Below are positions 31,346 through 58,432 of a stretch of DNA of 64,000 bases, one piece after another (within the stretch, counting starts at the first letter, position 1; every line of letters starts with the position of its first letter). The notes below the pieces were generated by a model, which was given only the letters and a program-made list of their open reading frames with translations, made no database searches and had not been told where the DNA came from. The stretch lies in NCBI GenBank assembly GCA_963714095.1, contig OY970230.1, positions 895,907 to 959,906 on the forward strand, given 5' to 3'. A program made the position numbers and the translations under genes. The stretch comes from Candidatus Gottesmanbacteria bacterium. GTDB taxonomy: Bacteria; Patescibacteriota; Microgenomatia; UBA10105; UBA927.

Positions 31346-31361
31346 AAAATAACATATTTTT

Positions 31362-33386: not shown

Positions 33387-33400
33387 TATACTGAGGGCGT

Positions 33401-33598: not shown

Positions 33599-33601
33599 CG
33601 T

Positions 33602-36631: not shown

Positions 36632-36856
36632 TGGATGTATTTTACCATGCTCAAATTATACAGTCTATTGACTCACATTTACGTACAGCATATAATGCAT
36701 ACAGCATGAGTGCCTAAGCCGTAAGACCATTGGTAATAGGGAACAACCATCCCGACCACTTGGCCGGGTTTTTTGGCCTCATTTTGGTTCGTTCTTTGAC
36801 ACTCAAATGGTGGTAGGAATTTAAATTAATGTAAGCAGTAATGTCTTACGTTAATT

Positions 36857-38444
<1,588 letters not shown>

Positions 38445-38645
38445 ATTTTAAAATCAATGTCGCCAAAAAAGTAAATTCGCAAGAAGACTGCTTTTGATGC
38501 GCTGTTGATATAGCGTCGCTGAGAGCGACGCAAAATTAAAATCGCTTTTACAGATCCCCGCGATGTAGTGTATACATCAACATGGGTAGCGATGCTCTCA
38601 ACATCTTTCTTACCACCATTTGATTGTCAAGGAGTAATAGCCGAA

Positions 38646-38666
38646 GTCCCCGCAAGGGGATTTTTT
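38646..38666 (+). terminator. Rho-independent terminator downstream of the 16S rRNA.
   Basis: GTCCCCGCAAGGGGA hairpin followed by TTTTTT. Confidence 0.6.
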
Positions 38667-38733
38667 GCGGACGTTTGACTGTCTTCATTCCAGAGATGAT
38701 AATCAATATTTGAAGTTATGAATATTTCAAAAA

Positions 38734-40190
38734 TTGCTTCTTTTCTTGCAACCCTCTCAAAAATATAAGCTGCTTCTTTTAGGCATTGTGCTGTTTCTGT
38801 TTATTGTTCACGTTCCGGAGCTTGCGGCCCCAATGAGAAGCGAATCAGATGCATATGATCGGTCACTGACTGCCCAGTGGATGAGAGATAGTCATGTTAT
38901 ATTCGATTTGCATCCCTTTTCCTGGCTGCCTTTACATTCTACTATTTTGACTACCTCTTTATATTTATATAACAACATTTACTTTACTCCTCGATTCATA
39001 ACCGTCATTTTTAGTCTGTTAACAGTAGTTCTAATGATTCCGTATAGTCAGCTTTTTTTAAAAACAAAAAGGAGGGGATTTATTTTTTTATATGTATGAT
39101 TTTTGCATTACTTCCTATAAATTTTTATTTAGCCACCGTAACGTTAAGTGAGCCGATTTTTTGCTTTTTTCTGATAAGCTCATTGGTTCTTTTGAGTCCG
39201 GAGAGAACTTTTAGATACTACCTTCTGGGTATATTCATGTTTACCATAGCAACAGGTATTCGTTATGAGTCCTGGTTTCTATTACCTTTTATTTGGTGTC
39301 TCATTTTGATAAAAGATTTGCCGGTTTTTAAAAAAATTGTGCTTATTTTGGGGAGTGGTTTATTTATAAATTTTTGGATCTTTTTAAATTCGTTTTACCT
39401 TCATGACCCCTTTTTCTTTTTTTAAAATGTATATAATTCGGGGATAGCCGGTGCAAACCCCGCGTATTTTCGTCTACTGCCATCTTTACAGGGCTGGTAT
39501 GTCAGATTGACAGATATATTTCCAAGTTTGTTACTCTGTTTAGTCGTTATAGGTTTATTCGCGGCATTATATAGGAATCAAAAAAAATATCTCCTCATTC
39601 TTGTTCTCCTTCCTTTTTACCTTTTTTTGATATTAGTATTGCAGGTTTATTTTGGCACATTGCCGTCTGATCTATGCCGGTATCTTGTGACGCCTATTAC
39701 ACTAGTCTTTCCTCTGGTCGGAGTTGGTATATACACGCTTTTTCTATTTTTAAGGCGATTGGATGTGCCTGCCCTGCTTATTAAAATCGGTTTTGCCGTA
39801 TTTTTTTGTTTTCTCTATATTCCGCTTTTTCCGCATACTCAAAAAGTTCTCCAACTGGTTGAAAATTATACCAAATCAACAAATGGAGGATTTATTATCA
39901 GTAAGTGCATTCCTCTCGAAATTTCCCATTTCCGCTTCGGATTCAAAGGAATTTTATATTTTTATCCTTCAGAAAAATCACGTCAATATTTGGATTCCGG
40001 ATTACGGTATTTTTTTCATCCGTCTGACAAAAAATTGTATTCTCAGCCTATTTCACAACTTCGAAGACCGCCTAAATTAAACCCAATTATTGTTTATGAA
40101 AGACCATATAGTTCGAGGGGTGTTCCTTCAGAAACCCGATATTCTCATTATGGAATTCTCTATGAGAATAGCTCCTTTATTGTTTTTTGA
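38734..40190 (+). pseudogene. Disrupted GT-C-type (ArnT/PMT-like) membrane glycosyltransferase gene, split into three ORFs by one frameshift and one in-frame stop.
   Basis: Three consecutive hydrophobic ORFs (121, 109 and 227 aa) sum to about the size of the adjacent intact GT-C gene. AT-rich. Confidence 0.4.
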
Positions 40191-40215
40191 CGTGAAGCTA
40201 GGAATGAGGCTTGTT

Positions 40216-41682
40216 TCATGGAACAGGTAGCGAGTATAGTTTTATACATTCGTGCGGATTCGCTGACTTATCAGCACAGAGAGTTTCAAGGAGTTCTGGT
40301 CGTTGAGCACTTATACATGGGTACTGATCCGGAGTTGTAATATACAGGATAGATTTTGGAATAGTAGATATCGGAATAGCAGATTGTTGGTCTTCGAGTA
40401 CGAATCTCAATTTTGTTGCTTTCAGGCAATCGCAGTCGGACCAAAAAATTTTTGATTTTATTGTAGTATAACCATAAAAAGGGTTTTCAATTTGATCCTG
40501 TACAAACGATTGTGATGTCAAAACTGCATCAGGATATTCATGTTGAATATGGGCAATGACTTGTTGAGTAAAATATATTGAGCGGAAAAACCCGAAAGAT
40601 ATTTCGTTATCATATACGAACGGCGTATAAAAAGTGTTTACTATATTCGAAAAGATAAATCCTACGCAAATTATTGTCACAGCGCATAAGAGAATAGTCC
40701 GATTGGTTATAAAACAAGTAAAGATAGCAGAGAAGAGAATGAAAACGACAGGATAAACTTCCAAGAAATATCGCGGTTGTACAGGGCCAGTCAGCGGAAA
40801 GACGTAGTATCCGATACTTACGAGGACAAGGAAGAACATCACCGGTAATTTTGAACGATAAATAGTACGTTTTGATACGGAAAGAATAACCAGTCCGATG
40901 ACAACGATTCCGATGATAAACCATTCCTGATTTTTGAAGAGACTTTGTTCAAAGTCCCAATGTAAATCTCTTGGATTCAGGCCGGATAGTATATGGTTTA
41001 TATTGAATAACGAAACGTTGTATGGCCAAAGGAACCACCCAAATAGCACCTTGTTGACGCACATCCATGCAAAAAATATACAAATCGGAAACAACAGGAA
41101 AAGGCGCGGTTTCCGTTTAGTGGTACAGAGGTCAAATAATAAAATTGCGACCAGCAGAATAATTCCCGGTTCCTGGGTTAAAACGAGTAGTGATGCGGAT
41201 AGTGTATATGCCCATGGTTTCTTTGCGAAGTAATAATAGAGAGTCATAAGAAACACTGCGGTAAATGGTACAGCGTCGACGAAGAGGAAACTTTGTGTTG
41301 CAAAAAGAGGATACGTAAGAAGCAGCAGGAGCGCGGCAATACCAACTTTTGTTGAAAAAAGCTGTTTTCCGAGAAGATATACATAGAACAGTGCAATTGA
41401 AGAAAATATATATATCTCTATCCGTCCCCAGGCAAGGGATGGACCTATCAGTTTGAATAATAGCGCGGGCAATATATACATTAATTGCGGCTTGTATCCG
41501 TAAAAATAGACAAACGGATTTACATTATTGTGAGATATGATATCGACGCCGGTAAAGTACAGGATTTCATCTTCAAAGGCGGGTATTTTCGCAAACGGAA
41601 TGCGGACAATTATGTTTGTGATACAAAGCAATAAAACAATTATTGTAAATTTATCGTGAGATATTTTTTTCCAAAGATTCAT
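40216..41682 (-). CDS. GT-C-type membrane glycosyltransferase (ArnT/PMT family-like).
   Basis: About 11 TM helices with an N-terminal DE-containing loop, as in GT39/GT83. 488 aa. Confidence 0.5.
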   Translation of the reverse strand: MNLWKKISHDKFTIIVLLLCITNIIVRIPFAKIPAFEDEILYFTGVDIISHNNVNPFVYFYGYKPQLMYILPALLFKLIGPSLAWGRIEIYIFSSIALFYVYLLGKQLFSTKVGIAALLLLLTYPLFATQSFLFVDAVPFTAVFLMTLYYYFAKKPWAYTLSASLLVLTQEPGIILLVAILLFDLCTTKRKPRLFLLFPICIFFAWMCVNKVLFGWFLWPYNVSLFNINHILSGLNPRDLHWDFEQSLFKNQEWFIIGIVVIGLVILSVSKRTIYRSKLPVMFFLVLVSIGYYVFPLTGPVQPRYFLEVYPVVFILFSAIFTCFITNRTILLCAVTIICVGFIFSNIVNTFYTPFVYDNEISFGFFRSIYFTQQVIAHIQHEYPDAVLTSQSFVQDQIENPFYGYTTIKSKIFWSDCDCLKATKLRFVLEDQQSAIPISTIPKSILYITTPDQYPCISAQRPELLETLCADKSANPHECIKLYSLPVP

Positions 41683-41799
41683 ATAGTGTTTTCACTACGC
41701 ATTTTTATCCTCATAACAAAATTATCATACACTAAGTGAATATGATAAAATAGCATCGTAGAGAATGTTGTTTCGGGTTCATTGAATAAGTAAATAGTC

Positions 41800-41872
41800 C
41801 GGCGCGGTGGCGAAGTGGTAACGCGGGAGTCTGCAAAACTTCTATTGCAAGGGTTCGATTCCCTTCCGCGCC
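41800..41872 (+). tRNA. tRNA-Cys (anticodon GCA).
   Basis: Acceptor GGCGCGG/CCGCGCC, anticodon loop CUGCAAA, T-loop GGTTCGATTCC. Confidence 0.85.
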
Positions 41873-41888
41873 TCAGAGGAAAGAATAT

Positions 41889-42086
41889 ATGGCAGTAAAA
41901 ATTGAAACCGATAAGAGTAATTCTAGAAGAGTAGGGAACATGGTTTTACGTGATGCATGGTTAGCGCTTGTCAAGAATGCGCTTTATAATGGTGGCGTTT
42001 CTTCTGGTGAACGGTCGAAGCTGGACCCTCACATGTTAAAGTCAGTAATAAGTAAAATTATAACGAATACTGATGGTGATCATTAA
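41889..42086 (+). CDS. Small hypothetical protein (65 aa).
   Basis: Good RBS (GAGGAAAG) 7 nt upstream of the ATG. Confidence 0.35.
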   Translation: MAVKIETDKSNSRRVGNMVLRDAWLALVKNALYNGGVSSGERSKLDPHMLKSVISKIITNTDGDH

Positions 42087-42096
42087 GAATAAAATA

Positions 42097-42168
42097 GGGC
42101 GGCTAGTTCATCGGTAGAACGCTTTCCTGATAAGAAAGAGGTGCATGGTCCGACTCCATGGCCGCCCA
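42097..42168 (+). tRNA. tRNA-Ile (anticodon GAU). Its 3' portion forms the attachment site of an integrated element.
   Basis: Acceptor GGGCGGC/GCCGCCC, anticodon loop CUGAUAA. Unusual T-loop UCCGACU. Confidence 0.8.
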
Positions 42169-42171
42169 CAA
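42105..42171 (+). repeat. attL: the 3' part of tRNA-Ile (direct repeat copy 1).
   Basis: Identical 67-mer to 49453-49519. Confidence 0.8.
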
Positions 42172-42274
42172 AAAAGACTGTTAGAACGCTTCAAACCTTC
42201 TTCTTTGGGTACTATATTTAATAGCACTACAACGACGAAAAAACTCCATTTTTGACAGATAGAGGGGTTTCGTC

Positions 42275-43282
42275 ATGCAGAGAGAAGTACTAGAAAAATA
42301 CATTGCGGAATGGTTAGAAGACTATTCAAAGGAAGCCGGTTTATCTCATCAGACCGTATTAAATAAGACTTCTAGCATGAAGCGGTTTCTGTTGTTTGTT
42401 GGGGATAGAAAGGTCACAGTTCCCATTATCCGTGAGTATCTTTCCTGGTTGCGTGAGCGGCTGATGCTTTCCTCGGTGCGATGTGAGATAAAGAATCTGA
42501 GAGCCCTGTCATGCTTTTTGGTAAAAAGAAGGTACATAAAGCAGGAAGACGATTGGTCCGATCAAATCAGTATGCCAAAATACATAAAACAACCACTGCA
42601 AGTACCTGACCAAATAACAATGGAACGAATCATTATTGAGGGGACAACCCCGCAAAAGGGTGAAAATAATCGTTGTCAAAAGGCGAAAAGTGAAACGAAA
42701 GACGCACTCATGTTTTGTTTACGCCATGGTTTGCGCTCCGAGGAGCTGCGAAGTTTGGAGACGTCACAGGTATCACTTGATAGCGATACGCCAACCTTTT
42801 CGTTTAAGAGGAAAGGCGGCAAAGTGATGACGCTACCTATTACAAAAGATATGGTTCCGATGCTTAAAGAGCGTTGTAGTGCTCCTAGACGGCTTATTTT
42901 TACGGTTTCGGAGAAGACACTGAACACCGCACTGCAACGGGGAGCCGAGAGGTTGCATATAACCGAACCGGTCCACTGCCATACGCTCCGGCACTGTTTC
43001 GCCACGGAATTATTGAGGAAAGGTGTACCGATTGAGCAAGTAAGCGCTATGCTTGGTCATAGCAACATTCAACTGACGTATTCCTATTACCAGCACTTGC
43101 TTCCAAATGATTTTTCACTCCACATGGCAAAGCAGACCATAGTGAGGGAGCGCATGCCAACTGCGACTATTTTTGAGACCGTTATAAAAGCTGTAGAATC
43201 AACAGGGGTTACAAAAGATGCCCGATTTCAACATTTAATTAAACAAGAGGGGAAAACTTTGGTTATTCAGATTTCTGTGTGA
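42275..43282 (+). CDS. int: Tyrosine-type site-specific recombinase/integrase.
   Basis: Conserved catalytic boxes. An Arg in LRHGLRSEELRSL, HxxR in HTLRHCFATELL, and a catalytic Tyr in LGHSNIQLTYSYY. Confidence 0.85.
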   Translation: MQREVLEKYIAEWLEDYSKEAGLSHQTVLNKTSSMKRFLLFVGDRKVTVPIIREYLSWLRERLMLSSVRCEIKNLRALSCFLVKRRYIKQEDDWSDQISMPKYIKQPLQVPDQITMERIIIEGTTPQKGENNRCQKAKSETKDALMFCLRHGLRSEELRSLETSQVSLDSDTPTFSFKRKGGKVMTLPITKDMVPMLKERCSAPRRLIFTVSEKTLNTALQRGAERLHITEPVHCHTLRHCFATELLRKGVPIEQVSAMLGHSNIQLTYSYYQHLLPNDFSLHMAKQTIVRERMPTATIFETVIKAVESTGVTKDARFQHLIKQEGKTLVIQISV

Positions 43283-43332
43283 GAGTAAAACTCCATTTTT
43301 ATCTTTCCATCTTTTTAAGTTTAAATTCAGAG

Positions 43333-43671
43333 CTATTTTTCTAAAATTTTTTTAATAATTGCCTCTATCCCTTTTGTAATATTATTTGATATGACACAGA
43401 GATGTCCAAATAAACCCATTGCAAAAATAATAAATAATCCAAAATCACTAATATCTAAAAGTTTACCCTTTAATAACAACGGCCACCTAACGCGTATAAA
43501 GTAATACCCGACTAATCCGGCAAATAGGAAGTTTACAATATCGTTCCAGAATTCAACAAAGTTAAGTTGCCAAGACCAGCCTTTACGACTGGGAGCAATG
43601 CTAGCAAATTTTATATAGCCCAAAATAATACTCGCTAAAAATACTAAACTTAAAATAACAAAATTATTCAT
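43333..43671 (-). CDS. Small 3-TM membrane protein (island cargo).
   Basis: Hydrophobic ORF. 8-nt overlap with the upstream gene. Confidence 0.4.
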   Translation of the reverse strand: MNNFVILSLVFLASIILGYIKFASIAPSRKGWSWQLNFVEFWNDIVNFLFAGLVGYYFIRVRWPLLLKGKLLDISDFGLFIIFAMGLFGHLCVISNNITKGIEAIIKKILEK

Positions 43672-44245
43672 AAGTTTGATGATGGGAATGTTGTAAACTT
43701 TTGAAGTAGTTGTTTAGCGATGATTGCCGAACTTCTTGATTATTTGTATTACTATTTGATCCTCGTGTTGTAAATAGTAAACGGCACCCAATGATGACTA
43801 AGAGTATGAGAGCGATACAAAAACTGATTTCTTGTATATACAGGGGTACAGTAGTAGATGAACCGGGAACTGGGCCAAGCGCTTCAACTTCGCGATTTGC
43901 TTTATTAAATTGTTTACTAGAATCAGACCATATAGATTCTCTTTTACTTGAATCTCTGGATATTTTTACGAAATAATCGCTATCAAATAGTAGCTGAATT
44001 AAACCACTTAATATAGAAAAAAGAAATAATAGCCAGCTCGCCAAAAGTAATATTTTATCTGATTGACTTAATTGAATATTTAATACGATGACAGAGGCAG
44101 ATAATGGTAAAATTACTGACGATAGGGCGAGAAGTTGCCGAATGATTTCTGATTGTCGTTGGTTAGCAAGTTCAATCCAAAATAATGCTGCTCGTTGTGC
44201 TGCATCTTTGTTCCTTTGTCTCAAAGTTTCATCATCTTGCGCCAT
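43664..44245 (-). CDS. 4-TM membrane protein with a charged N-terminal helix (island cargo).
   Basis: Hydrophobic ORF, translationally coupled to 43333..43671. Confidence 0.4.
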   Translation of the reverse strand: MAQDDETLRQRNKDAAQRAALFWIELANQRQSEIIRQLLALSSVILPLSASVIVLNIQLSQSDKILLLASWLLFLFSILSGLIQLLFDSDYFVKISRDSSKRESIWSDSSKQFNKANREVEALGPVPGSSTTVPLYIQEISFCIALILLVIIGCRLLFTTRGSNSNTNNQEVRQSSLNNYFKSLQHSHHQTYE

Positions 44246-44480
44246 TATTTTTTACCTTTATTAGTTGGCAGTAAGGGTTTTATTGAGTGACTTTCATTTG
44301 TTTTATCTTGTGTTATCGGTGCTGAATAACCTTTTTTGTCCTGTATAGTAGGCGCTGTGAATCCTTTTTTGAAGTCTGACAGTTGTGTTATTGTTTTGTT
44401 CATATAGTAGCTTTGCATAAGAGTCTAGCATTTTATATATATTCAAGCAACCATATAGAGTAACGAGTATAATTTGGCGT

Positions 44481-45851
44481 ATGACAAATTGTTATTATAA
44501 AAACGTAATAGACTATTTTGGATCTTCTTGGTTTGATTCTGCTTGGAAAGAATTTCGGGAAATAAGAAATAAGTTTTCAAATGATTCGTTTAGTAGTGAA
44601 ATCACTAAACTTGAATTAAGTTTACACCCGTTACATAGAGACATATTTACATGGCAAGATTTATCTAAAGGTTATTTAGATTTTGATAAAATACCCCAGA
44701 AAAGTGCATCGGATTTTAATTTATCTCATCTCGGACGTGATTTGGAATTATTGTCAGAAGAGATAAAACAACGGGGTTCACATATAAAACATGATCTTTT
44801 AGATCCAGTTGCCTACGAAAATCATAGATTTACTTTATTAGTTGCGGCGGGGTATAAAAAACTTGGTTTTACGGTTGAATTTGTTCCAGCGTCATCGTCA
44901 AAAGGGAAAACGCCGGATTTACTTGTTAATGATACTTATTTCATTGAGTGTAAGCAAAGAAACCAACAAAGTTCGGACGATTCAAGATATAGATTTTTTG
45001 GTGAGCTAGTTGAGACATATTTTGGAATATTACGAGTAAAAGGCATAAATAATTATTTTTTAAATATAGAGGATAATGGCTCTGTAGAATCGCATAAAAA
45101 TATTATTGATACGATCATAAGAAGAAAGATTTTTAGGAATCAAACTATACCCAACACAAAAAATACAAGAGTGTCTCTTACAAGAGCGACTGATTTTCCT
45201 GATTTAATAAAAATATTGAAAGAATTCGGTCATTTTCTAAAAGCCCCAGTTTTTACGAGAACAGAAGATGCTTTTATAGCTTCGGATCCGAAACTAATGA
45301 ATCTATTTATGCTTAATAAAAATATTAACGTCGCCGAGCTCTCAAAAAGTGTTTTTAGCCTGCTAACTGATGCTGACAGTAAAGACAAAAAGAATAAAAA
45401 GCTAATTGTATATATTGACTTGGGTAGGGCTCCAAGCGAATGGATAGCTAATCTGGCAGATTATCTTTATAAAGGGGTGGGAGTTCATGCTTATAAAAAT
45501 ATAGATGCATTTGTAGTTTGCAGGACGCCCATTCTTTATACTGAATCACGGACTGAAATAAGGCCAAACTTTAATATAATCGGTCATACTTCACGTCTTG
45601 GGGATACACCGGATAAATTGAATCTTTTTGGATTTCAAGGACATACAGGAATGGATGGATATTTTATTGACGGATTTTTGAACCCCATTATCACGACTAC
45701 GAGTGGTAGCAAGTATATAGAGTGTCATAACTGTGGCTTTAGACTTGAAGGCATTGCGACGAATTTAGGCAACGGCGAACAATTATCTGAGGCCAATATG
45801 CCATGCCCAAAATGTTCTCATGCAATGGATATGACAATAAAAGAAACGTAA
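44481..45851 (+). CDS. Hypothetical 456-aa protein with a PD-(D/E)xK nuclease-like motif and a C-terminal C4 zinc ribbon (island cargo).
   Basis: …ENHRFTLLVAAGYKKLGFTVEFVP…TPDLLVNDTYFIECKQ (E…PD…ExK spacing). C-terminal CHNCG…CPKCSH. Confidence 0.5.
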   Translation: MTNCYYKNVIDYFGSSWFDSAWKEFREIRNKFSNDSFSSEITKLELSLHPLHRDIFTWQDLSKGYLDFDKIPQKSASDFNLSHLGRDLELLSEEIKQRGSHIKHDLLDPVAYENHRFTLLVAAGYKKLGFTVEFVPASSSKGKTPDLLVNDTYFIECKQRNQQSSDDSRYRFFGELVETYFGILRVKGINNYFLNIEDNGSVESHKNIIDTIIRRKIFRNQTIPNTKNTRVSLTRATDFPDLIKILKEFGHFLKAPVFTRTEDAFIASDPKLMNLFMLNKNINVAELSKSVFSLLTDADSKDKKNKKLIVYIDLGRAPSEWIANLADYLYKGVGVHAYKNIDAFVVCRTPILYTESRTEIRPNFNIIGHTSRLGDTPDKLNLFGFQGHTGMDGYFIDGFLNPIITTTSGSKYIECHNCGFRLEGIATNLGNGEQLSEANMPCPKCSHAMDMTIKET

Positions 45852-46034
45852 GGAGTTGTTATCTTAAATAATCGTTTAGACCTGTAAAACTAAAGTAATG
45901 CAGTTATAGGGTCTAAGCTGAAATTTAACCTGAAGCTAAAATTATAACTAGACGTCGCACCTCGTTTATTGTGCGACTAATAATACTAAGACGTTTCACG
46001 CTTATCTATTTGTTCACAGTAGTATAATAACGAC

Positions 46035-46874
46035 ATGATCTACAAGGTTCGTTCTGCTACTCGGAAAGAATTGGATACGGCGATTGGTTGGGCGGCAAAG
46101 GAAGGGTGGAATCCAGGGTTATACGACGCTGATGCGTTCTTCGCAACGGACCCTAAAGGGTACTTCATGGGATTTCTCGGAAACACTCCGATTGCTTCGC
46201 TTTCCGCGGTATCCTACGGACCCGATTTTGGTTTTCTCGGGTTCTATATCGTCAAACCGGAATATCGGGGCAAGGGATACGGCTGGAAACTTTGGCAGAC
46301 GGCCCTCAAACACCTGAAAACGCAGAATATCGGTCTTGATGGTGTCGTAGCGCAACAAGAAAATTACAAAAGATCAGGGTTTACTCGTGCATACGCAAAT
46401 ATCCGCCATGAGGGAACGGGTGGAAATACCTCGCCGAAGTCAATCTGCATAGTCCCTTTGGCAAGGGTACCGTTTAATATTCTTCTCGCCTATGACCGAC
46501 AGATGTTCCCGGCCAAGCGAGCGGCATTTCTCAAACTTTGGATTAACCAGCCGAAAAGTCTAGCGCTCGGGTATATGAAAAACGGGAAACTACTTGGATA
46601 CGGCATGGTGCGACCCTGTAAGGTGGGTTACAAAGTAGGCCCGCTGTTTGCGGACAATGAAAATATTGCTGATGAACTTTTTCAGCAGTTCCGCGCATTC
46701 ACAGGAAAAGAAAAAATCTATCTGGACGTGCCGGAGGTAAACAAGAACGCGCTTGCTCTTGCCAAAAAGTATTCTATGAAGCCGATGTTTGAAACTGCCC
46801 GCATGTACACGAAGGCAATCCCTAAGGTAGCGCTCAATAAAATCTTTGGTGTTACGACGTTTGAGGTGGGATAA
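46035..46874 (+). CDS. GNAT-family N-acetyltransferase (two-lobed, 279 aa).
   Basis: Acetyl-CoA binding motif FYIVKPEYRGKGYGWKLWQ. Confidence 0.7.
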   Translation: MIYKVRSATRKELDTAIGWAAKEGWNPGLYDADAFFATDPKGYFMGFLGNTPIASLSAVSYGPDFGFLGFYIVKPEYRGKGYGWKLWQTALKHLKTQNIGLDGVVAQQENYKRSGFTRAYANIRHEGTGGNTSPKSICIVPLARVPFNILLAYDRQMFPAKRAAFLKLWINQPKSLALGYMKNGKLLGYGMVRPCKVGYKVGPLFADNENIADELFQQFRAFTGKEKIYLDVPEVNKNALALAKKYSMKPMFETARMYTKAIPKVALNKIFGVTTFEVG

Positions 46875-47241
46875 ATTGGGGGGAAGGGCGGCCGTAAATA
46901 TTCTACTCATAGCCTCGCACGCGGAGGGTTAAAACCTGTTAATTATTTACTCGCGATAATTCCCGCATAATATTATTTCTGATGCACCAGTATAGCAAAA
47001 ATATAATTGATTCCTCAAATAACCACCTACATGGTTAAGAGGCGAGGCTGTATGTCTTCTACTACCCCCTGTGGTTTAATAGGAGTCTTCAACAGTAATG
47101 GAATAGCTACTGTTGAGGCTATGAATTTTTAGATAATATGTACCAGCCCCCGAATGTTCCACCACGGAATTGGTCGCGTTGCCCGTACTCGTGGCAAATT
47201 CTAACCCTGATCGGTAGCCGTTTACCGTTTGAGGTTGAATG

Positions 47242-47766
47242 CTAAATACACCTAAGACCAGAACGCGATCGGTCAGTCGCGACGTAGTTTATTCTCCATT
47301 GCGCCCCTCGTATATCAAAGCTGCTTGTAGACGAATCTCCATTGCTTCCAGAGATTGTAAAAACGGTATGCCATGCAGCTGGAGCCGTCGGTGATTGGGC
47401 GGTTGGGTATATTTTTTTAGTTGGAAAATATTGAAAATAATCAATGGTCGGAGTTGCATGTTTCTGTTGTAAAAATTCTTCTACGGTCATTGATTTTATT
47501 GGCTCCGTTTGGGGAGTGGCTATTCTCCCAACATAAATTAACACTGAAAAAATAAGAACCAGATAAAAAATGGACAATGATGCCTTTATGGAACTATCAG
47601 CTTTCACTCGTTTATCCCACAACCAGTAGTTGGGAAGTGTGTAGACGAAGATAATGAATAATAAAATGAGTGCTGCGTGAAAATTCCCAGTATATCCAAT
47701 AACAAGTAATGGTATGGCACATAACACTATGGCTAAACTGATGATGATTTTTTGTATTTTTGTCAT
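47242..47766 (-). CDS. Membrane protein (2-3 TM) with a Ser/Thr-rich extracellular tail (island cargo).
   Basis: Hydrophobic ORF. Confidence 0.4.
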   Translation of the reverse strand: MTKIQKIIISLAIVLCAIPLLVIGYTGNFHAALILLFIIFVYTLPNYWLWDKRVKADSSIKASLSIFYLVLIFSVLIYVGRIATPQTEPIKSMTVEEFLQQKHATPTIDYFQYFPTKKIYPTAQSPTAPAAWHTVFTISGSNGDSSTSSFDIRGAQWRINYVATDRSRSGLRCI

Positions 47767-48062
47767 AGCTTAAATACAGAAAATATGAAAGACAGAATGG
47801 TAAGAAATATATAAATACCACCAATAAAAATAGCGAAGAATACTGCCGTACTAATAATAATTCTCACAATTGCTAAAAGTAATTCAGTTGTCCAATGTTT
47901 TGAGGGAATCTTTTTTAATAAAGTAGTAACTTTTTGCCATATAAAAGACCACAGTCTCTTGAATTGTTTAAATAACATGTAGCTAAATATGTTCGGCATA
48001 CAAAAAACTCCCGTCAGCGGTAGGTTTCCCCACCTGCAAGAGTTTCCCCTTACAGCCGACAA
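47763..48062 (-). CDS. Small 2-TM membrane protein, translationally coupled to 47242..47766.
   Basis: 4-nt overlap (ATGA). Confidence 0.35.
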   Translation of the reverse strand: MSAVRGNSCRWGNLPLTGVFCMPNIFSYMLFKQFKRLWSFIWQKVTTLLKKIPSKHWTTELLLAIVRIIISTAVFFAIFIGGIYIFLTILSFIFSVFKL

Positions 48063-48194
48063 AGGCGCTCTGACGAGAGTTATCTGCCTTTGTCGGTCTT
48101 CTTTGCCATGCCCGGCATATTTGCCGGGTTTAGGCTATTAAATTGTAGGTCCATTTTATACCTGACAACACAGGTGTGCAAACGCAAAAAATGC

Positions 48195-48223
48195 TTGACA
48201 CGAGACGTCGTAAAAAGTAAAAT
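48195..48223 (+). promoter_or_regulatory. Consensus sigma70-type promoter (TTGACA-17 bp-TAAAAT) upstream of the island's Zn-finger/HTH genes.
   Basis: cTTGACAcgagacgtcgtaaaaagTAAAATt. It is preceded by a 12-bp perfect inverted repeat (GCCGACAAAGGC…GCCTTTGTCGG) at ~48114-48158. Confidence 0.5.
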
Positions 48224-48436
48224 TTAAGTAGAATATCGTTTGGAAACGGTAAGTTCAATTTGAACAATCCGTGGGCGTAGAAGCTAGTATACAGCTTAGA
48301 ACAAGCTCTCCGGCCTCAATCGGGTGGAGTCCACTCTAAGATTTGTTAGTTAGCAGAGCCTAAGAATCAAGTTTAATCGGTTGACCACATTGTTGTTAAA
48401 ACTTGTTGGTTGTCTGATTTAACTTGAGTTTTTTTT

Positions 48437-48631
48437 GTGGAAAGACATATGACAGATACAAATTCAACATCAAAATCAATCAAACCTCTTTATACGGCTC
48501 AGAAGTGTCCTGTATGTAACGGATGGGGTACGGTTTCCTATCAACGAGTAACTTGCCATGCGTGTAACGGGAAAGGATACCTACTCATTCCTGTAATGAA
48601 AGACAGAAAGACAGAATATGATGGAACATAA
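48437..48631 (+). CDS. Small zinc-finger protein (CxxCxGxG x2, DnaJ-type zinc-finger-like).
   Basis: CPVCNGWG…CHACNGKG. Confidence 0.45.
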   Translation: MERHMTDTNSTSKSIKPLYTAQKCPVCNGWGTVSYQRVTCHACNGKGYLLIPVMKDRKTEYDGT

Positions 48632-49370
48632 AATAAACTTCAGCATCTTACGTCAGGCGGTACGAGATCCTACGCTAAAACCTATTGATAAAGTAGTTCT
48701 CATGGATTTGCTCTTATATGCTGGGACAACAGATAGGGCATTTCCAAGCGAAGCTACGCTTGCTAAAAATCAAGGAGTCACAGATAGGTACATTAGAGAT
48801 GTTATCGTTCATCTTAAGGACTCTGGATGGATCAGCTGGAAAAAAAATGGATATTCAGTAAGCAATAGGTATAACTTTAATCAAACTCTTTATCCTTGTT
48901 CCGACGGCGCTCACAGGAACTCTGTTTCCTATGATTCCGGAACTCAGACTCCGTTACATTCCGGAATTGCAGTTCCGCCTATACATAGTCAGGAAAGTAA
49001 TCAACATAAAGGTAGTCAAGCACAACAACTTTTTGAAGAAACTTTTAAGACGAAATGCACTCCCACGGAGGCTACCCGCTTACAGGGTCTTACTAGCTCG
49101 TATACGGAAGAATGGGTTGCCGCGGCCATTAAGGAAGCCCTTGGGAAGCATAAGCCATTCGTAACAGTCGGCCTCATTGAGCTTATCTTGTCAGATTGGA
49201 AGCGTGATGGTAAACCGGAGGAAAAACCAAAATTGGTAGCCTGCGGGTTAAATGGATGCAAACATGGCTATATATTTACGGGTAGCAGTTATGTTGAATG
49301 TAATTGCTTATTAGAATATAAAATTAGAGTGCAGAAATGGGAAAAGAGTGATAGGCGAGTGCAGTTTTGA
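48618..49370 (+). CDS. Winged-helix/HTH protein, putative replication-initiation or regulatory protein of the element.
   Basis: N-terminal DKVVLMDLLLYAGTT…ATLAKNQGVTDRYIRDVIVHLKDSGWI is HTH-like. C-terminal Cys cluster. Confidence 0.45.
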   Translation: MMEHKINFSILRQAVRDPTLKPIDKVVLMDLLLYAGTTDRAFPSEATLAKNQGVTDRYIRDVIVHLKDSGWISWKKNGYSVSNRYNFNQTLYPCSDGAHRNSVSYDSGTQTPLHSGIAVPPIHSQESNQHKGSQAQQLFEETFKTKCTPTEATRLQGLTSSYTEEWVAAAIKEALGKHKPFVTVGLIELILSDWKRDGKPEEKPKLVACGLNGCKHGYIFTGSSYVECNCLLEYKIRVQKWEKSDRRVQF

Positions 49371-49452
49371 TTTTTGACCCCTTTTCATTTTATTTAGTCA
49401 GTGGTACATTCTTCATAGAATATAAAAATAGTGGAGTTTAGAGCGTTATAAC

Positions 49453-49519
49453 AGTTCATCGGTAGAACGCTTTCCTGATAAGAAAGAGGTGCATGGTCCG
49501 ACTCCATGGCCGCCCACAA
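49453..49519 (+). repeat. attR: a partial tRNA-Ile 3' copy (direct repeat copy 2) lacking the 5' acceptor strand.
   Basis: Identical to 42105-42171. Preceded by unrelated sequence. Confidence 0.8.
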
Positions 49520-49543
49520 TTATTTATTGTATAATTCTCCATC

Positions 49544-50401
49544 ATGTCTCAATCTCGCGAACGGTTAATTTATCCAAAACTTCCTGGTCAGGGATTACGC
49601 TTTGTGATGGACGAAGTGATCCAGCATGGTGTCTTTCACACTGAACAAATCGGTTCTCAGGAAGGACGTAATCGCGCTGTTGAATTAAATAAACAAGGGT
49701 ATTCACTTATATTACTATGGAGTCACGATTGGATTTATGATGGTTTTGTTGCCGCGGGACAAATTCTTCGAATTCCGGAGTTTCGCAAACATCCTTCCGT
49801 TTTTCCGATAGGATTACATCAATATGAAGAACATAAACGCAGTCTCCATGCAGCAGAGTTTTTAGTTCGGGGGCATCTGGCTCCTATCGTGACAGAAGAC
49901 ACGTTGAAAATTCCAGAATATGTCGAAAGGGGTTGTACATTGAATGACGGATTAAAAGATTATCTTAATCTTGCAGTACCCGCCCTAGCAGCAGGAGGGA
50001 CAGTTGGTGTAGCGCCGCAGGGAGGAAGGGAAGATTATTACGGCGCAACCGCCATCAAACCGGCATTAAGCGTATTGCTTTCTGCCGCTACAAATAACGG
50101 ATTATCCAGGATAGCTATGCTTCCAATGGGCATCGGATTTAAAGAAATTAGTCACCCCGCTGATTACAGTAAATTGCATGATCTTCCATTGGGCACATTT
50201 ACGCCGACAGTTGAATTCGGTCGATGTACCACTCTTGAGGAACTCGGTTTACATCCGGGCATAAAAGGGAAAGAGAGAAAGCTATTATTGGGGAATATAA
50301 ACAACTTTGAGTTTTATGAACTTGCACACGTAGTGCCTGAAGATTATCTGGTCCCAGGATTTGATTTTTTAAAACAACCCGATTTGCTTCGAGGCATCTA
50401 A
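49544..50401 (+). CDS. Acyltransferase (lysophospholipid/glycerol-phosphate acyltransferase family-like).
   Basis: HDWIYD (Hx4D) motif and PQGGR (PEGTR-like) motif. Confidence 0.5.
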   Translation: MSQSRERLIYPKLPGQGLRFVMDEVIQHGVFHTEQIGSQEGRNRAVELNKQGYSLILLWSHDWIYDGFVAAGQILRIPEFRKHPSVFPIGLHQYEEHKRSLHAAEFLVRGHLAPIVTEDTLKIPEYVERGCTLNDGLKDYLNLAVPALAAGGTVGVAPQGGREDYYGATAIKPALSVLLSAATNNGLSRIAMLPMGIGFKEISHPADYSKLHDLPLGTFTPTVEFGRCTTLEELGLHPGIKGKERKLLLGNINNFEFYELAHVVPEDYLVPGFDFLKQPDLLRGI

Positions 50402-50980
50402 CACGGCCCGCGGGTAGGAGAAGTCGACAGGAATTTCGCGGGCCGTATTCCATTTATCAACGTAGTTTAACTTTCTATGTGTCACGCCGTAGTCATAGAG
50501 GTCACGCGTGAGGATGACATCAGCCTCGCAATAGTGCTTCAACTTGGCTAAACTTTCCGGCGAGTGTTCTTTCCAGTAGAGGACGGCATTTGTCCCGATA
50601 TCGGTTTTATGTGCTCCGAGCGTTTGGGTAGCCAGATGGTCAAGTCCGAGAGAAAACCCCAGCGTGTCACGGACGATTTTCATGATGTCGAAATGCGGAA
50701 GCTTTTCAAACCCGGTAGGCGAGTATTTTTTTAATGCCGGCACGTCAAATTTTACGGAATTGAATCCAATAATTCTTTGGGCGCCGCTAAAATGTTTCCA
50801 CATGCCGTCGAGTTCGTGTTCCCAAAAACTATACATTGTCCCCTGGATTTCATTTTGGAAATCATCCACAGTCCGCACGTAGAGGGATACGACGGAAATG
50901 CCCAAGTCGCCGGGATCGCCGCCCACGATTTCGTTAAACAATTTTTGCGTTTCGCAATCGAAAACTACTTCAGTAATCAT
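50369..50980 (-). CDS. DEDD-family 3'-5' exonuclease (RNase H-like fold).
   Basis: FDCET (Exo I), an internal D, and YCEADV (Exo III-like) motifs. Confidence 0.6.
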   Translation of the reverse strand: MITEVVFDCETQKLFNEIVGGDPGDLGISVVSLYVRTVDDFQNEIQGTMYSFWEHELDGMWKHFSGAQRIIGFNSVKFDVPALKKYSPTGFEKLPHFDIMKIVRDTLGFSLGLDHLATQTLGAHKTDIGTNAVLYWKEHSPESLAKLKHYCEADVILTRDLYDYGVTHRKLNYVDKWNTAREIPVDFSYPRAVLDASKQIGLF

Positions 50981-51001
50981 AGTTTAGGGTATAATGATAG
51001 C

Positions 51002-51757
51002 ATGAAACCTACCCGTGATACATCCTGGCACAATGTGGGGAAGTGGTACAACGAAAAAGTCGGCGATCGCGGCAGCTATTATCATGAACACGTGGTCTTG
51101 CCCGGCGTCCTCCGTTTATTACAATTAAACCAGAATTCTTCTCTTCTGGATATGGCGTGCGGTCAGGGTGTTTTAGGAAGGCAGATTCCTAAAAGCGTGA
51201 AGTATGTCGGGGTTGATGCTGCGGCGTCCCTCATTACATTTGCCAAAAAATCGGATCGCAATCCCAACCATCAGTTTTTGGTCGGTGACGTGACACAACC
51301 TTTACCCGTTACGGAAAAATTTACGCACGCGGCGATTATTCTTGCTCTTCAGAATATCGAGCAGCCCGAATTGGCGATTAAAAATACTGCGGAACATCTG
51401 ATAGCCGGCGGGAAATTAGTTATCGTTTTAAATCATCCGGCATTCCGTATTCCGCGGCAGTCAAATTGGGGGATTGATGGACAAAGTAAACTCCAATACC
51501 GGAGGGAAAATATCTACATGTCGCCTTTGAAGATTCCGATTACGATGCACCCCGGGTCGGGAAGCGGATTAACCTGGTCATTCCACGAGCCGATTTCTGC
51601 CTATACCAAAATGCTTGCCGAGAATCATTTTGTGATTGAATATCTTGAAGAATGGACGTCGGATAAAGAAAGTGTCGGGAAGGTAGGAAAAATGGAAAAC
51701 CGGTCGCGTACCGAGTTCCCGCTGTTTTTGGCAATCGCTGCGCGAAAAGATCGATAA
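51002..51757 (+). CDS. Class I SAM-dependent methyltransferase.
   Basis: LDMACGQG motif I. Start set at the internal Met preceded by TATAAT; the longer ORF overlaps the exonuclease gene. Confidence 0.7.
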   Translation: MKPTRDTSWHNVGKWYNEKVGDRGSYYHEHVVLPGVLRLLQLNQNSSLLDMACGQGVLGRQIPKSVKYVGVDAAASLITFAKKSDRNPNHQFLVGDVTQPLPVTEKFTHAAIILALQNIEQPELAIKNTAEHLIAGGKLVIVLNHPAFRIPRQSNWGIDGQSKLQYRRENIYMSPLKIPITMHPGSGSGLTWSFHEPISAYTKMLAENHFVIEYLEEWTSDKESVGKVGKMENRSRTEFPLFLAIAARKDR

Positions 51758-51771
51758 GTTTGAAATTTTTC

Positions 51772-52857
51772 TTATTTTGCGGTCAGTGCCGCAATAGCTG
51801 CACCAGTGAGCTCTGCATTCTCAAAGGCATCTCTGGATTTAAATGTTGCATGAGGTTGGCCTATATATGTTTCCAATAGTCGGGTTACCCTCTGTGCAAA
51901 TGCAGGAACTTCAAATCCTCCTCCGTGATACACGATAGTAGTTTCTCTTGGTTTTAGGCGAAGTGCTGATTCTTCCAACGCAATTGTTTGAGCGAGGGCC
52001 ACGGCGGAAGCATTATAGAGGTTAGCTGCGAATTCATTCCCTTGTTGATACAGTGCGCTTATTTCCCGACCGTCAAGCCGTTTGCCTGTTATTTGACGAT
52101 ACGTTCCTTCTACACCCGCGCCGCTTGCGGCAATTCTTTCGATACAGGTATACGTTGCGCCGTTGACACCGCAGGGTTCTATTCGATGAAAAGGATTGAG
52201 ATCGTCCGGCGCTATTAAATGTCCGGGTTCAGATGCGAGAATATGCCATTCGTCAGATGATACGTCTTTTGTTAATACGGCAAGTCCAAATCCTTTGCCG
52301 TCGATAACAAATAAAACATTCTTCACATTCGGATTCCTTTTAAATGCTTCCAGTCCTGTCGATTTTACTCCAGCAACGGCATCGTTATTTAATACGACAC
52401 GGGAAGCAGGAAATAATCGCGCAAAGTCTCCGCCGAATTGTTTTCGAAGCTGGCTGGTAAACGTCCGTGCATTCGGCGAATCCGCCAGAATGGTTCCGTC
52501 AAGAATTCCGGCGCAGCTGATTCCGATAAACGGAGTTTGCTCTGATGTCCGCAAAAAATTTAAATACGTGTCTCCGTCCGATCCTTTTTCGGTGTCAGTT
52601 TCAGAAACCGATGTTAATACGCCGGACTTGACGCGGAATTTCCGCCGCGCCACTTTATCTCCGCCGATATCAATTCCTGTGACAAGTTGTCCTTCATGTT
52701 TGGCAATAATTGCATTGATATTTTCCGGATCAAATATTTCTATTGTTTTGACGCGCAGCGACTCCAAGGTAAGCGCGCGTTTAAGCTCCGATGAGATTGG
52801 GGGCGTTTCGCTAACTAATAAAGGATTAATGTCAGGACTCGCCGGTTCGTGTCGCAT
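51772..52857 (-). CDS. ROK/BadF-type sugar kinase-like ATPase.
   Basis: TGIDIGGDKV phosphate-1 motif of the ASKHA fold. Start chosen downstream of the msrB overlap. Confidence 0.5.
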   Translation of the reverse strand: MRHEPASPDINPLLVSETPPISSELKRALTLESLRVKTIEIFDPENINAIIAKHEGQLVTGIDIGGDKVARRKFRVKSGVLTSVSETDTEKGSDGDTYLNFLRTSEQTPFIGISCAGILDGTILADSPNARTFTSQLRKQFGGDFARLFPASRVVLNNDAVAGVKSTGLEAFKRNPNVKNVLFVIDGKGFGLAVLTKDVSSDEWHILASEPGHLIAPDDLNPFHRIEPCGVNGATYTCIERIAASGAGVEGTYRQITGKRLDGREISALYQQGNEFAANLYNASAVALAQTIALEESALRLKPRETTIVYHGGGFEVPAFAQRVTRLLETYIGQPHATFKSRDAFENAELTGAAIAALTAK

Positions 52858-52891
52858 GTTGTCTGGATTATATTGATAGAACGCGGAAAAG

Positions 52892-53314
52892 TCAAAAACG
52901 TAGCGGTTTAAAATCCAGCGCGAGGGAGTTAATACAATATCGAAGTCCTGTTTTGTCTTTCGGCCCATCGTTGAATACATGTCCCAGGTGAGCACCGCAA
53001 TTTACGCACATGACTTCAGTCCGAACCATTCCCATACTCGAATCTTCAGAGGTTTTTACGTTTCCGCGTGTGAGGACATCATAAAAACTTGGCCAGCCGG
53101 TGCCGCTGTCAAATTTTGTATCACTGCCGAATAACGGCGTGCCGCAAGAGACGCACACATAGGTGCCGGGTTGGTGATTATCGGTATATTTGCCGGAAAA
53201 CGGCGGCTCAGTGCCTTTCAAAAAACAGATATTGTACTGCTCGGGAGTAAGTTCGCGTTTCTTGTATGATTGGGGCGCCATATTATCGGAAAACGAGAAC
53301 GCAGAGGCCGACAA
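52892..53314 (-). CDS. msrB: Peptide-methionine (R)-S-oxide reductase MsrB.
   Basis: CxxC…CxxC zinc site and the catalytic RYCINS motif, GTGWPSF. Confidence 0.85.
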
Positions 53315-53591
53315 TAATGGTAATTGCGATGAAATTAGAAAGCCCCGCGATGACGATAAACCCTAGTTCCGTGAGCACCCATGCTGTAAGAAGGATTAAC
53401 CCAATGATCCGAAGGAGAGAGGGCAACGCGCTGATAGCCCAAAGGATTGCCACAAAAATGAAGAATGCAGCAAGAGAGATTGGTTGGCTGTGGATGGTGA
53501 AGATGGTCGGATTCGGTACGCTGACACCCGGAATTTGAATATATCCGTAAAAGTAGACGAGTACCAGGAGAAGAAGAATGATTCCTATCAT
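53283..53591 (-). CDS. Small polytopic membrane protein.
   Basis: Three hydrophobic helices. Start uncertain. Confidence 0.35.
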
Positions 53592-53615
53592 ACTTATTTT
53601 GTACCACAAGGAGGT

Positions 53616-54263
53616 CTATGGTGACAAGTGCGTCAACTTTTCAAGTTCACCCACGGAGGCGGTGGGATTATCGGTGTCGAAGTGGTAGGTATGAAATCCC
53701 GATTTGTGTGCCTGTCGGAGGTTGAGTGCCATGTCATCAATAAGAAGTATTTCTCCGGCTTCCACCCCCGAGCGAAGTTGGGCGATGGCAAATATTTGCG
53801 GATCGGGTTTGGTTATCCCTAGTACACCGGATTCGATAATAGTTGAGAATTTCGCGTGCGGAATATGTCCGAGCGCTCTCGTTTTGGCGACGGATCCGGC
53901 CATGGCGTTTGTTAAAAGGCCGATTTTTCGCGTCCGGGATATTTTTTGGACGAACGTATGGGTTTCTTTGATAGAACGGAAACTTGTTATCCAGAGATCC
54001 ATGAAATCTATGTTCCTGCCTCGGTAGTGAAAATGCGTTGTTAGTTGCCGCCAAAATTCGTCGGCGGTGAGAGCCCCGCGGTTAAGTTCGTCATCGAGCG
54101 GTTCCCAAAAGTCACGTATGTCTTCCCTCGACACATTGAGCACATTCGCGAGGTTCGTGAGACTGCCGGAGAAGTCAAGAAGCACTCCTCCTACGTCAAA
54201 ATAGATGAATTTGATGGGTTTCTGTGTTTTTGCCTCACGATACCGTTGTGTTTTTGCTGCCAT
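53616..54263 (-). CDS. HAD-superfamily hydrolase.
   Basis: FDVGGVL (DxD/G motif I) and LIDDMALN motif IV. Confidence 0.7.
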   Translation of the reverse strand: MAAKTQRYREAKTQKPIKFIYFDVGGVLLDFSGSLTNLANVLNVSREDIRDFWEPLDDELNRGALTADEFWRQLTTHFHYRGRNIDFMDLWITSFRSIKETHTFVQKISRTRKIGLLTNAMAGSVAKTRALGHIPHAKFSTIIESGVLGITKPDPQIFAIAQLRSGVEAGEILLIDDMALNLRQAHKSGFHTYHFDTDNPTASVGELEKLTHLSP

Positions 54264-54308
54264 GCGGAAATTATAGCATGAGTACTGATAGCGAAGGTAT
54301 TTTTATCG

Positions 54309-55004
54309 ATGTGTTACAATTTTGGCATGAGTATTCAATCCGATTTACAAAAAGTAGCAAATAAAAAGAAAGCGATGTTATTGGCGCGATATTTTAAAAC
54401 GGGAAAAGGGGAGTATGGGGAGGGAGATATATTTGCTGGGATTACCGTGCCGCAGGTTCGGATTATTGCAAAAAAATGGAAAGAACTTCCTCTTGGTGGA
54501 GTCGAAAAATTGTTGCATAGTCCTATCCATGAATATCGGTTGACAGCTCTCATTATCCTTACCTACAAGAAGTTGGCGAAAGAAATCGTGGACCTGTATC
54601 TTTGCAATACGAAATACGTAAATAATTGGGATTTGGTGGATTTATCGTCGCACGAGATTTTAGGGGCATACCTTTTGGATAAACCGCGTAAGATTTTATA
54701 TTCGTTGGCACGATCAAAAAATATGTGGGAACGAAGAATCGCGGTTATATCGACGTTTGCATTCTTAAGAAAGAACGACTGTTCTGATTCGATGTCGCTA
54801 GCTGAAATACTTATTCATGATCCGCAGGATTTAATGCATAAAGCTGTGGGTTGGATGCTGCGGGAGGTAGGGAAGCGGGATGAAAAAGCGTTGGTCGATT
54901 TTTTGGCGAAACAATATAAGACGATGCCCAGAACTATGTTGCGTTATGCAATAGAAAAGTTTCCGCCCGCCATGAGGCAAAAATATTTAAAAGGAACTAT
55001 ATGA
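54309..55004 (+). CDS. DNA alkylation repair enzyme (AlkD/AlkC HEAT-like repeat family).
   Basis: Characteristic N-terminus (…ARYFKTGKGEYGEGDIFAGITVPQ…) and WxxVD motif. Confidence 0.7.
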   Translation: MCYNFGMSIQSDLQKVANKKKAMLLARYFKTGKGEYGEGDIFAGITVPQVRIIAKKWKELPLGGVEKLLHSPIHEYRLTALIILTYKKLAKEIVDLYLCNTKYVNNWDLVDLSSHEILGAYLLDKPRKILYSLARSKNMWERRIAVISTFAFLRKNDCSDSMSLAEILIHDPQDLMHKAVGWMLREVGKRDEKALVDFLAKQYKTMPRTMLRYAIEKFPPAMRQKYLKGTI

Positions 55005-55438: not shown

Positions 55439-55496
55439 CGGGTATTTGGCCTATTCTAACTTGACATTTATACCTCCTCTTTTTATACTCCTACCT

Positions 55497-58407: not shown

Positions 58408-58432
58408 ACCTTGTATGATAGCAAAAATTTGA

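Follow-up and report, generated by a model that had tools for sequence, protein, structure and literature searches.

The window analysed here is a stretch of 64,000 nt from the chromosome of an ultra-small, uncultured bacterium, Candidatus Gottesmanbacteria (assembly GCA_963714095.1, contig OY970230.1, positions 895,907 to 959,906), the host lineage belonging to the Microgenomates group within the Patescibacteria group, or candidate phyla radiation (CPR). A segment of this window, which begins with a tRNA gene at 42097 and closes with a partial copy of the same gene at 49519, holds what is very probably a site-specific integrative element of 7,348 bp, seated in tRNA-Ile(GAT). Related loci are referred to by L numbers, and the features that define the two ends of the element are as follows.

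41801-41874: tRNA-Cys(GCA), called by ARAGORN, ahead of tRNA-Ile(GAT)
42097..42169 (+): tRNA-Ile(GAT), the regenerated target (attL); its first 8 nt are host, the remainder is the same in host and element
42105..42171 (+): left copy of the 67-nt repeat, tRNA positions 9-73 plus CAA
42170..42274 (+): left arm of the element, between the tRNA and the integrase start; conserved in the L001 and L004 elements (83-85% identity in 100-nt windows)
42275..43282 (+): Xer-like tyrosine integrase of 335 aa, directed into the element (PF00589, phrog_1)
49374..49452 (+): right arm of the element, ~78 nt; ~90% identical in L001, L004 and two L012 relics, where the neighbouring genes differ
49453..49519 (+): displaced partial tRNA-Ile (attR), positions 9-73 plus CAA, after which comes a host gene for a 285-aa protein

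The tRNA-Ile is intact, as the original prediction had it (a tRNA-Ile(GAU) at about 42097-42168): ARAGORN calls it at 42097-42169 (+) and the Rfam tRNA model at 42097-42168 with 57.5 bits. An exact 67-nt direct repeat (42105-42171 and 49453-49519, offset 7348 bp) is the sole long repeat within 40-52 kb. A 23-nt piece of it occurs exactly twice in the window, where none is expected from 100 shuffles, and the window contains no further decayed copies. It had been claimed that the last 67 nt of the tRNA recur at 49453-49519 without the 5′ acceptor strand; the recurrence is indeed exact, but the 67 nt consist of 64-65 nt of mature tRNA-Ile (positions 9-73) followed by CAA. The final AA is probably a coincidence, because the identity among sister elements stops at ...CCCAC. 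The right copy opens at tRNA position 9, with GTTATAAC preceding it where the tRNA has GGGCGGCT, and is devoid of the 5′ acceptor strand. It does not belong to a second full tRNA in the window, since ARAGORN makes no call at 49453-49519 and the Rfam tRNA model covers positions 9-63 only.

The prediction that a tyrosine integrase follows the tRNA is well founded: the protein matches PF00589 with 87.6 bits (cut-off 27.1; E = 1e-24) and phrog_1 with E = 1.9e-35, besides weak Xer-like NCBIfam matches, and its start lies 105 nt past the end of the tRNA-Ile. On alignment, residues R154, H236, R239, H262 and Y272 coincide with the catalytic-region motifs of HP1 integrase and IntI4 and are invariant among the relatives; the corresponding residues of HP1 integrase we take to be catalytic. 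Close relatives are rare, only eight (57-100% identity; one of them, P0001, identical) being present among 5.8 billion clustered proteins, with two further loci in Joint Genome Institute metagenomes. Every relative with upstream DNA on its contig (L001, L003, L004, L006, L007, L008, L016 and L017) is located immediately downstream of a tRNA-Ile(GAT), with tRNA-Cys preceding wherever the contig extends that far; these eight integrase loci amount to approximately five distinct elements. In L004 (NCBI GCA_936410025.1), tRNA-Ile and integrase are joined to a different cargo, and an exact 66-nt partial tRNA is found 8.8 kb away. The identical 73-nt tRNA-Ile sequence occurs in the window, L001 (two copies), L004, L010, L011 and L012, and the integration target is thus conserved across several species. 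In L003 (205-1271) and L004 (1941-2996) the integrase gene is split into two open reading frames (ORFs), by a frameshift or an assembly error, and these copies may be decaying.

The enclosed DNA had been described as AT-richer than its flanks, and both measures of composition place it far from the host. Its GC content is 38.8% versus 46.3% for the remaining window and 42.2% for the lowest host stretch of equal length. By tetranucleotide usage its distance from the host profile amounts to 0.294; the host mean is 0.116 (standard deviation 0.013, maximum 0.167), which puts the element more than 13 standard deviations off. Among the genes, integrase (44% GC) and a GNAT acetyltransferase (48%) are host-like; the others range from 29 to 42%.

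The locus in related genomes

A metagenome contig of 552 kb from ENA (ERZ25039480:contig_73729; L001/L026) was located through its encoded 285-aa right-flank protein. It is 100% identical to the window over 30216-42171 (~12 kb) and 49453-60401 (~11 kb); all 216 mismatches of the left-hand alignment fall within the integrase region, and the >23 kb of flanks contain none. At the same tRNA, L001 carries an element whose integrase is 86% identical in protein and ~80% in DNA, while its cargo is unrelated, comprising an Mrr-type restriction endonuclease, other unrelated genes and a weakly terS-like protein of 146 aa (phrog_309, E = 1.6e-6). There follow a related Zn-finger protein (48% identity) and a DnaD-like protein (phrog_2514), and the element ends in the same partial tRNA with the same conserved right arm before it. 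Without recent mobility it would be difficult to account for two essentially isogenic chromosomes that carry, at one and the same tRNA, distinct members of a single element family.

An empty site, with tRNA-Ile directly before the gene for the 285-aa protein, also exists in L001. Here 1.4 kb, with a 195-aa gene and a VIT1 gene truncated at its N-terminal end, separate the partial tRNA from a second, full tRNA-Ile, and the 285-aa gene comes immediately after the latter, so that the homologous right-hand position, unlike that of the window, is a full tRNA. From position 9 of this second tRNA onward L001 is 100% identical to the right junction of the window, and in-silico deletion of 42170-49517 (7,348 bp) reproduces the tRNA-Ile/285-aa junction of L001 at 1073/1073 bases. 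Just before the second tRNA (L001 8443-9974) there are ~40 nt of diverged homology to the sequence upstream of tRNA-Ile. L004 has the 195-aa gene, a full VIT1 and RNase_H_2, without the second tRNA and the 285-aa gene.

More distant relatives came from a scan of species-representative genomes with the right-flank RNase_H_2 alignment, which yielded Candidatus Gottesmanbacteria L010 (a 995-kb chromosome), L012 and L013, and three syntenic contigs labelled Gammaproteobacteria that are probably mislabelled; a like scan with the 285-aa flank protein gave no match. The conserved order is 16S, tRNA-Cys, tRNA-Ile, a variable stretch and RNase_H_2 on the opposite strand. Two of these loci are empty as well: in L011 a homologue of the 285-aa gene (28% identity) comes straight after the tRNA-Ile and precedes RNase_H_2, and in L015 the tRNA-Ile lies 15 bp from RNase_H_2. 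The interval is 1.2-1.3 kb in L010 and L013. No integrase homologue is present in the related loci L010-L015.

These comparisons bear on three other accounts of the repeat. It could be an assembly artefact, a repeat-induced chimera, the contig being metagenome-derived and short-read contigs breaking at the repeat; but the independent assemblies L001 and L004 show the same architecture with other cargo, an ERR11571142 Logan contig (L030) runs from the replication gene through the right arm into the beginning of the repeat, with 1 mismatch and 1 gap over 2021 nt, and L027 spans the left flank into the tRNA. Such a chimera is scarcely conceivable. The repeat could also stem from duplication of the tRNA region, or from homologous recombination at a hot spot, with the integrase uninvolved. 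The tandem of two full tRNA-Ile genes in L001 indicates that tRNA duplication does occur at this locus, and the diverged upstream homology before the second copy fits the same account. However, in the window, L001 and L004 alike the partial copy has an identical starting point within the tRNA and the conserved 78-nt arm before it, and the integrase family is tied to tRNA-Ile at every locus with upstream DNA; we consider duplication a highly improbable source of the repeat.

The third account holds that the island is fixed and immobile, a remnant of an old integration, and that strains differ only via homologous recombination. The apparently frameshift-split integrase genes of L003 and L004 agree with it, as do the failure to find an excisionase or see a circular form, the integrase-less relics with att-like arms in L012, and the layered, hot-spot character of the locus. 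In the window, however, the integrase ORF and its catalytic residues are intact and the att copies are identical at 67/67 positions; moreover, the different element of the isogenic strain (integrase DNA 80% identical) within >23 kb of mismatch-free flanks points to very recent turnover. Immobility is, in our opinion, quite unlikely.

As for the attachment site, both arms are conserved across elements with different cargo, and right arm, 65-nt core and left arm define attP. The right arm terminates in GCGTTATAAC, an 8/10 inverted repeat of GGTAGAACGC in the tRNA, across an 8-nt spacer (AGTTCATC) that constitutes the opening 8 nt of the identity block; to judge by sequence, this arrangement resembles the core site of a recombinase, placed in the D-loop. 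The right-arm terminus of L001, L004 and one L012 copy, TAGGGCGTTATAAC, is similar to the 5′ end of the tRNA (TAGGGCGGCT), and attP may have descended from a whole captured tRNA whose acceptor strand was disrupted later. Folded as single-stranded DNA, the attR region exhibits no structure beyond that of shuffles (z = -1.0). Since attL and attR are identical in every element having both ends, the crossover is not mappable from polymorphisms.

L012 (5758-9300) is an integrase-less locus with two att-like copies (7252-7437 and 9078-9258), which retain the right arm of the element and, from the tRNA, its D-arm and final 22 nt. A GC hairpin, TCCCGCCGAAGAGGCGGGA, stands in for the anticodon arm, and the T-loop is interrupted by a further hairpin of 39 nt; the full tRNA alongside is normal. 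The whole stretch running from tRNA-Cys through attR has the opposite orientation to that in the other genomes. If these relics are integration products, the crossover would fall within the last 22 nt of the tRNA, which conflicts with the D-loop clue.

A 5′ fragment of tRNA-Ile (positions 1 to ~47) lies between tRNA-Cys and the full tRNA-Ile in L006 (9733-9779), L016 (115-178) and L017 (~9708-9750). The fragments belong to more distant elements, with an integrase 59% identical, and an inverted D-arm-like motif (GCGCTCTACC / GCGTTCTACC) comes next. A simple model of 3′-end integration does not explain them.

Gene content and proposed life cycle

The element contains 10 ORFs, which were scanned against Pfam, PHROGs, NCBIfam and PADLOC. 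Besides the integrase, its features are the following.

43333..43671 (-): hydrophobic membrane protein, 112 aa; no family match
43664..44245 (-): membrane protein, 193 aa; no family match above any cut-off
44245..44418 (-): putative ORF of 57 aa (ORF call)
44481..45851 (+): orphan-family protein, 456 aa, with a predicted PD-(D/E)xK nuclease-fold domain (TPDL...IECK) and a C-terminal CxxC...CxxC ribbon
46035..46874 (+): GNAT acetyltransferase, 279 aa (Acetyltransf_18 E = 3.7e-34; Acetyltransf_1 E = 8.5e-16)
47242..47766 (-): protein of 174 aa with N-terminal transmembrane segments
47763..48001 (-): small membrane protein, ~79 aa from the ATG at 48001; a 99-aa version with a TTG start would overlap the LOOT RNA
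48019..48136 (-): full-length LOOT RNA (Rfam RF03000), co-oriented with the small membrane protein gene, which starts 17 nt downstream of it
48195..48223 (+): top-scoring sigma-70-like promoter candidate of the element (TTGACA-17-TAAAAT, 11/12), facing the Zn-finger and Rep genes; a consensus match only
48437..48631 (+): Zn-finger protein, 64 aa, with two CxxCxGxG motifs, overlapping the Rep start (DnaJ_CXXCXGXG 22.5 bits, below cut-off)
48618..49370 (+): replication initiator-like protein (Rep), 250 aa, with a winged HTH_36 and a DnaD/DnaB_2 domain

The original prediction listed a nuclease-like protein, a GNAT protein, small membrane proteins, a Zn-finger protein and an HTH/replication-like protein, and these calls are mostly borne out. 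GNAT is matched by Acetyltransf_18 (above), the membrane proteins are hydrophobic minus-strand ORFs, and the Zn-finger protein, with its pair of CxxCxGxG motifs, has a 48% identical counterpart at L001 6921-7112 (blastp/tblastn). The nuclease is putative, being backed by the predicted fold (AlphaFold model, predicted local distance difference test score 86) and by the E-x-K motif, in which E156 and K158 (IECK) are invariant; the family comprises 29 clusters among 1.84 billion representatives and has no profile match. For Rep, the HTH_36 domain scores 27.4 bits (cut-off 25), DnaB_2 21.3 (cut-off 22) and phrog_186, "DnaD-like helicase loader," E = 1e-11.

Relatives of Rep (42-46% identity) are encoded in other small elements adjoining a large serine recombinase (L018 6101-12326, L022 1530-4784 and L025); the module is thus in circulation among integrative elements of CPR with differing integrases. 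In L018 and L020 the relatives are found beside an HTH_3 repressor and a Terminase_2 protein. These serine-recombinase elements may represent a second family of integrative or satellite-like elements in CPR, judging from their gene content; in L018 the recombinase gene abuts a tRNA (12255-12326). The total count of promoter-like sites in the element is not above chance. The ~210 nt from the promoter-like site to the start of the Zn-finger gene (48230-48440, +), the 5′ leader of Rep, are mildly structured as RNA (z = -2.5 versus shuffles).

No capsid, portal, terminase, tail or lysis gene was matched by Pfam or PHROGs in the 10 ORFs, no relaxase, type IV secretion gene or oriT was detected in the element with Pfam, PHROGs and NCBIfam, and PADLOC assigned none of the ORFs to a defence system. 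By gene content, then, the element is neither a prophage nor an integrative and conjugative element nor an integrative mobilizable element. We know of no conjugation systems in this host group.

The original prediction was of a mobile element integrated at a tRNA 3′ end and leaving an attL/attR footprint. The anatomy of the locus, the isogenic contig and the empty sites all favour it, and they demonstrate integration with regeneration of the tRNA. The integrase recombined two sites: attP, made up of right arm (78 nt), tRNA copy (65 nt) and left arm (105 nt), and attB, the tRNA-Ile(GAT) gene of the chromosome. Everything in the tRNA from position 9 onward is supplied by the element, and an intact tRNA is thereby rebuilt at the left end, the displaced host copy, minus its 5′ acceptor strand, remaining at the right. 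The same integrase would presumably excise the element as a circle of 7.35 kb, and the module at the other end, Zn-finger protein plus DnaD-like initiator, would replicate this circle. Transfer from cell to cell would proceed by a route that the element does not encode, be it vesicles, natural transformation or a helper phage. Between integrase and replication modules the cargo is exchangeable, consisting here of the putative nuclease, GNAT, membrane proteins and LOOT, and in sister elements of the Mrr-type endonuclease and others.

A number of observations weigh against this scheme. No excised circle or attP junction was seen, the Logan contigs of ERR11571142 (L002, L027 and L030) breaking inside the repeat. 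The crossover could not be placed within the 65-nt core, the D-loop and last-22-nt clues being in conflict. The sole unoccupied site of the same strain adjoins a second, occupied tRNA copy, and the history of the locus is therefore not one clean insertion; the empty sites outside L001 are those of other species. No excisionase or regulator was identified in the element, no tandem repeats or iterons marking an origin were found, and the assignment of Rep leans on domain matches near or below the Pfam cut-offs. Finally, IMG/VR contains no match to the integrase (by alignment), to Rep or to the attR junction, and hence no evidence for packaging.

Packaging is central to a variant of the above that concerns the transfer route: the element might be a satellite like the phage-inducible chromosomal islands (PICIs), excised upon infection by a helper, replicated by its own initiator and packaged in helper capsids. 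It resembles them in its small size, with the integrase at one end and its own replication initiator at the other, and in its nuclease-type cargo; nuclease and Mrr cargo would fit phage interference. The sister element of L001, though not that of the window, encodes the weakly small-terminase-like protein of 146 aa (phrog_309), and in L018 and L020 relatives of Rep stand beside the Terminase_2 protein and HTH_3 repressor. On the other side, the element of the window has no match to a repressor, terS, capsid-morphogenesis (capsid-remodelling) or primase-helicase gene and no packaging gene, lacks relatives in IMG/VR, and has no known helper phage. A PICI-type satellite thus strikes us as rather doubtful.

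The LOOT RNA

LOOT has been described as a metagenome-derived RNA (PMC7779021). In an Rfam scan of the window it scored 87.9 bits over model positions 1-121 (E = 2.6e-15), the gathering score being 46.4, and the window holds no other copy. It is also present in L003 at 7643-7749 (-), with 74.6 bits, and in L006 at 12429-12542 (+), which equals L007 2680-2793, with 71.6 bits; three of the approximately five distinct elements of this integrase family therefore carry it. L001 and L004 have none even at E ≤ 1, nor have the 115 kb of empty-site, serine-recombinase-element and other loci examined. The sole IMG/VR match to a narrow pattern for the 5′ half of LOOT, L029, is not LOOT by Rfam and probably arose by chance, which is weak negative evidence.

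In all three elements a gene for a small protein, membrane-bound or secreted, begins 17-51 nt after LOOT in the same orientation. The 3′ tail of LOOT contains a Shine-Dalgarno-like tract in L006 and the window; in the latter the tract stands 8 nt ahead of the ATG at 48001. Among the three element copies, 19 of the 33 predicted pairs show a double, compensatory change, which with three sequences is weak when taken alone. RNAalifold pairs the apex of the long hairpin, CUCUCGUC, with the 3′ tail, GACGGGAG, over 8 bp, of which 3 covary; drawn from three sequences, this predicted pairing is a lead, not a finding.

The tRNA-Ile elements could conceivably form a replicative family specific to CPR and similar to tycheposons or satellites, which would be the natural home of LOOT, the RNA acting in cis as a leader that controls genes for small membrane or secreted proteins. 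We offer this as a tentative proposal, possible but on balance not probable. If true, LOOT would for the first time have a host and a genomic context, along with a function open to testing. The association places an orphan RNA on a defined mobile element, in a named host and next to a defined gene class, and it is the most novel point of this locus.

Known elements and neighbouring regions

In the Islander catalogue (PMC4383910), tRNA-integrated genomic islands are recognized by a tyrosine integrase beside a regenerated tRNA gene, a displaced 3′ tRNA fragment marking the far end. Adjacent integrase, intact tRNA and displaced 3′ fragment are all found here; the present element differs in its unusually long identity block (tRNA positions 9-73, nearly the whole gene), its CPR host and its very rare integrase lineage.

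The tycheposons of Prochlorococcus (bioRxiv 10.1101/2020.12.28.424599) have an inward-facing integrase at the tRNA end, an optional small replication module opposite and cargo between. The likeness is one of architecture and includes the partial tRNA at the far end, the streamlined host and the lack of capsid and conjugation genes. In contrast to tycheposons, the element has a DnaD-like initiator and Zn-finger protein rather than primase, helicase or polymerase, and its host is of another phylum. With integrated plasmids and integrative mobilizable elements (PMC5704250) it shares an integrase plus Rep and the absence of its own transfer machinery; it differs from them in that no relaxase or oriT was detected.

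The integration mechanism is an ordinary, textbook one in a little-studied host. What is noteworthy is the CPR host itself, the rare integrase lineage specific for tRNA-Ile, the near-complete tRNA block, the isogenic pair with different elements, and LOOT. The literature on mobile elements of Patescibacteria/CPR is sparse, and our literature searches turned up no description of a tRNA-integrated element for this group. A precisely delimited and recently turned-over element makes integrase specificity and gene flow directly testable in unculturable, streamlined bacteria, and the integrase/att system could yield a tool for site-specific integration in them.

Upstream of the element, the 16S rRNA gene (36857-38442) lies 3.4 kb before tRNA-Cys. 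The 16S regions of two relatives (L004 1-885, L006 6341-9372) hold LAGLIDADG endonuclease ORFs, that of L004 with a sub-threshold group I intron match (37.6 bits versus a gathering score of 50). Between 16S and tRNA-Cys, the AT-rich stretch 38734-41682 (33-40% GC) encodes a PMT_2-like membrane protein of 488 aa and three consecutive ORFs (121, 109 and 227 aa) that resemble fragments of a single membrane protein; in L004, L010 and L011 a VKOR gene takes the place of this content. The stretch may be a second variable region. The idea that it (38.7-41.7 kb) is an island of the same kind was dropped, the 483-aa membrane protein of L012 not being homologous to the PMT_2 gene of the window.

The gene at 49544-50401, which follows the right end, had been taken for an acyltransferase. 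Its 285-aa product has an HX4D motif (HDWIYD; HFSKRD in the L012 homologue) that fits such an enzyme, but no Pfam or NCBIfam match backs the assignment. The protein is only 27-28% identical in L011 and L012, versus 81-85% for the adjacent RNase_H_2.

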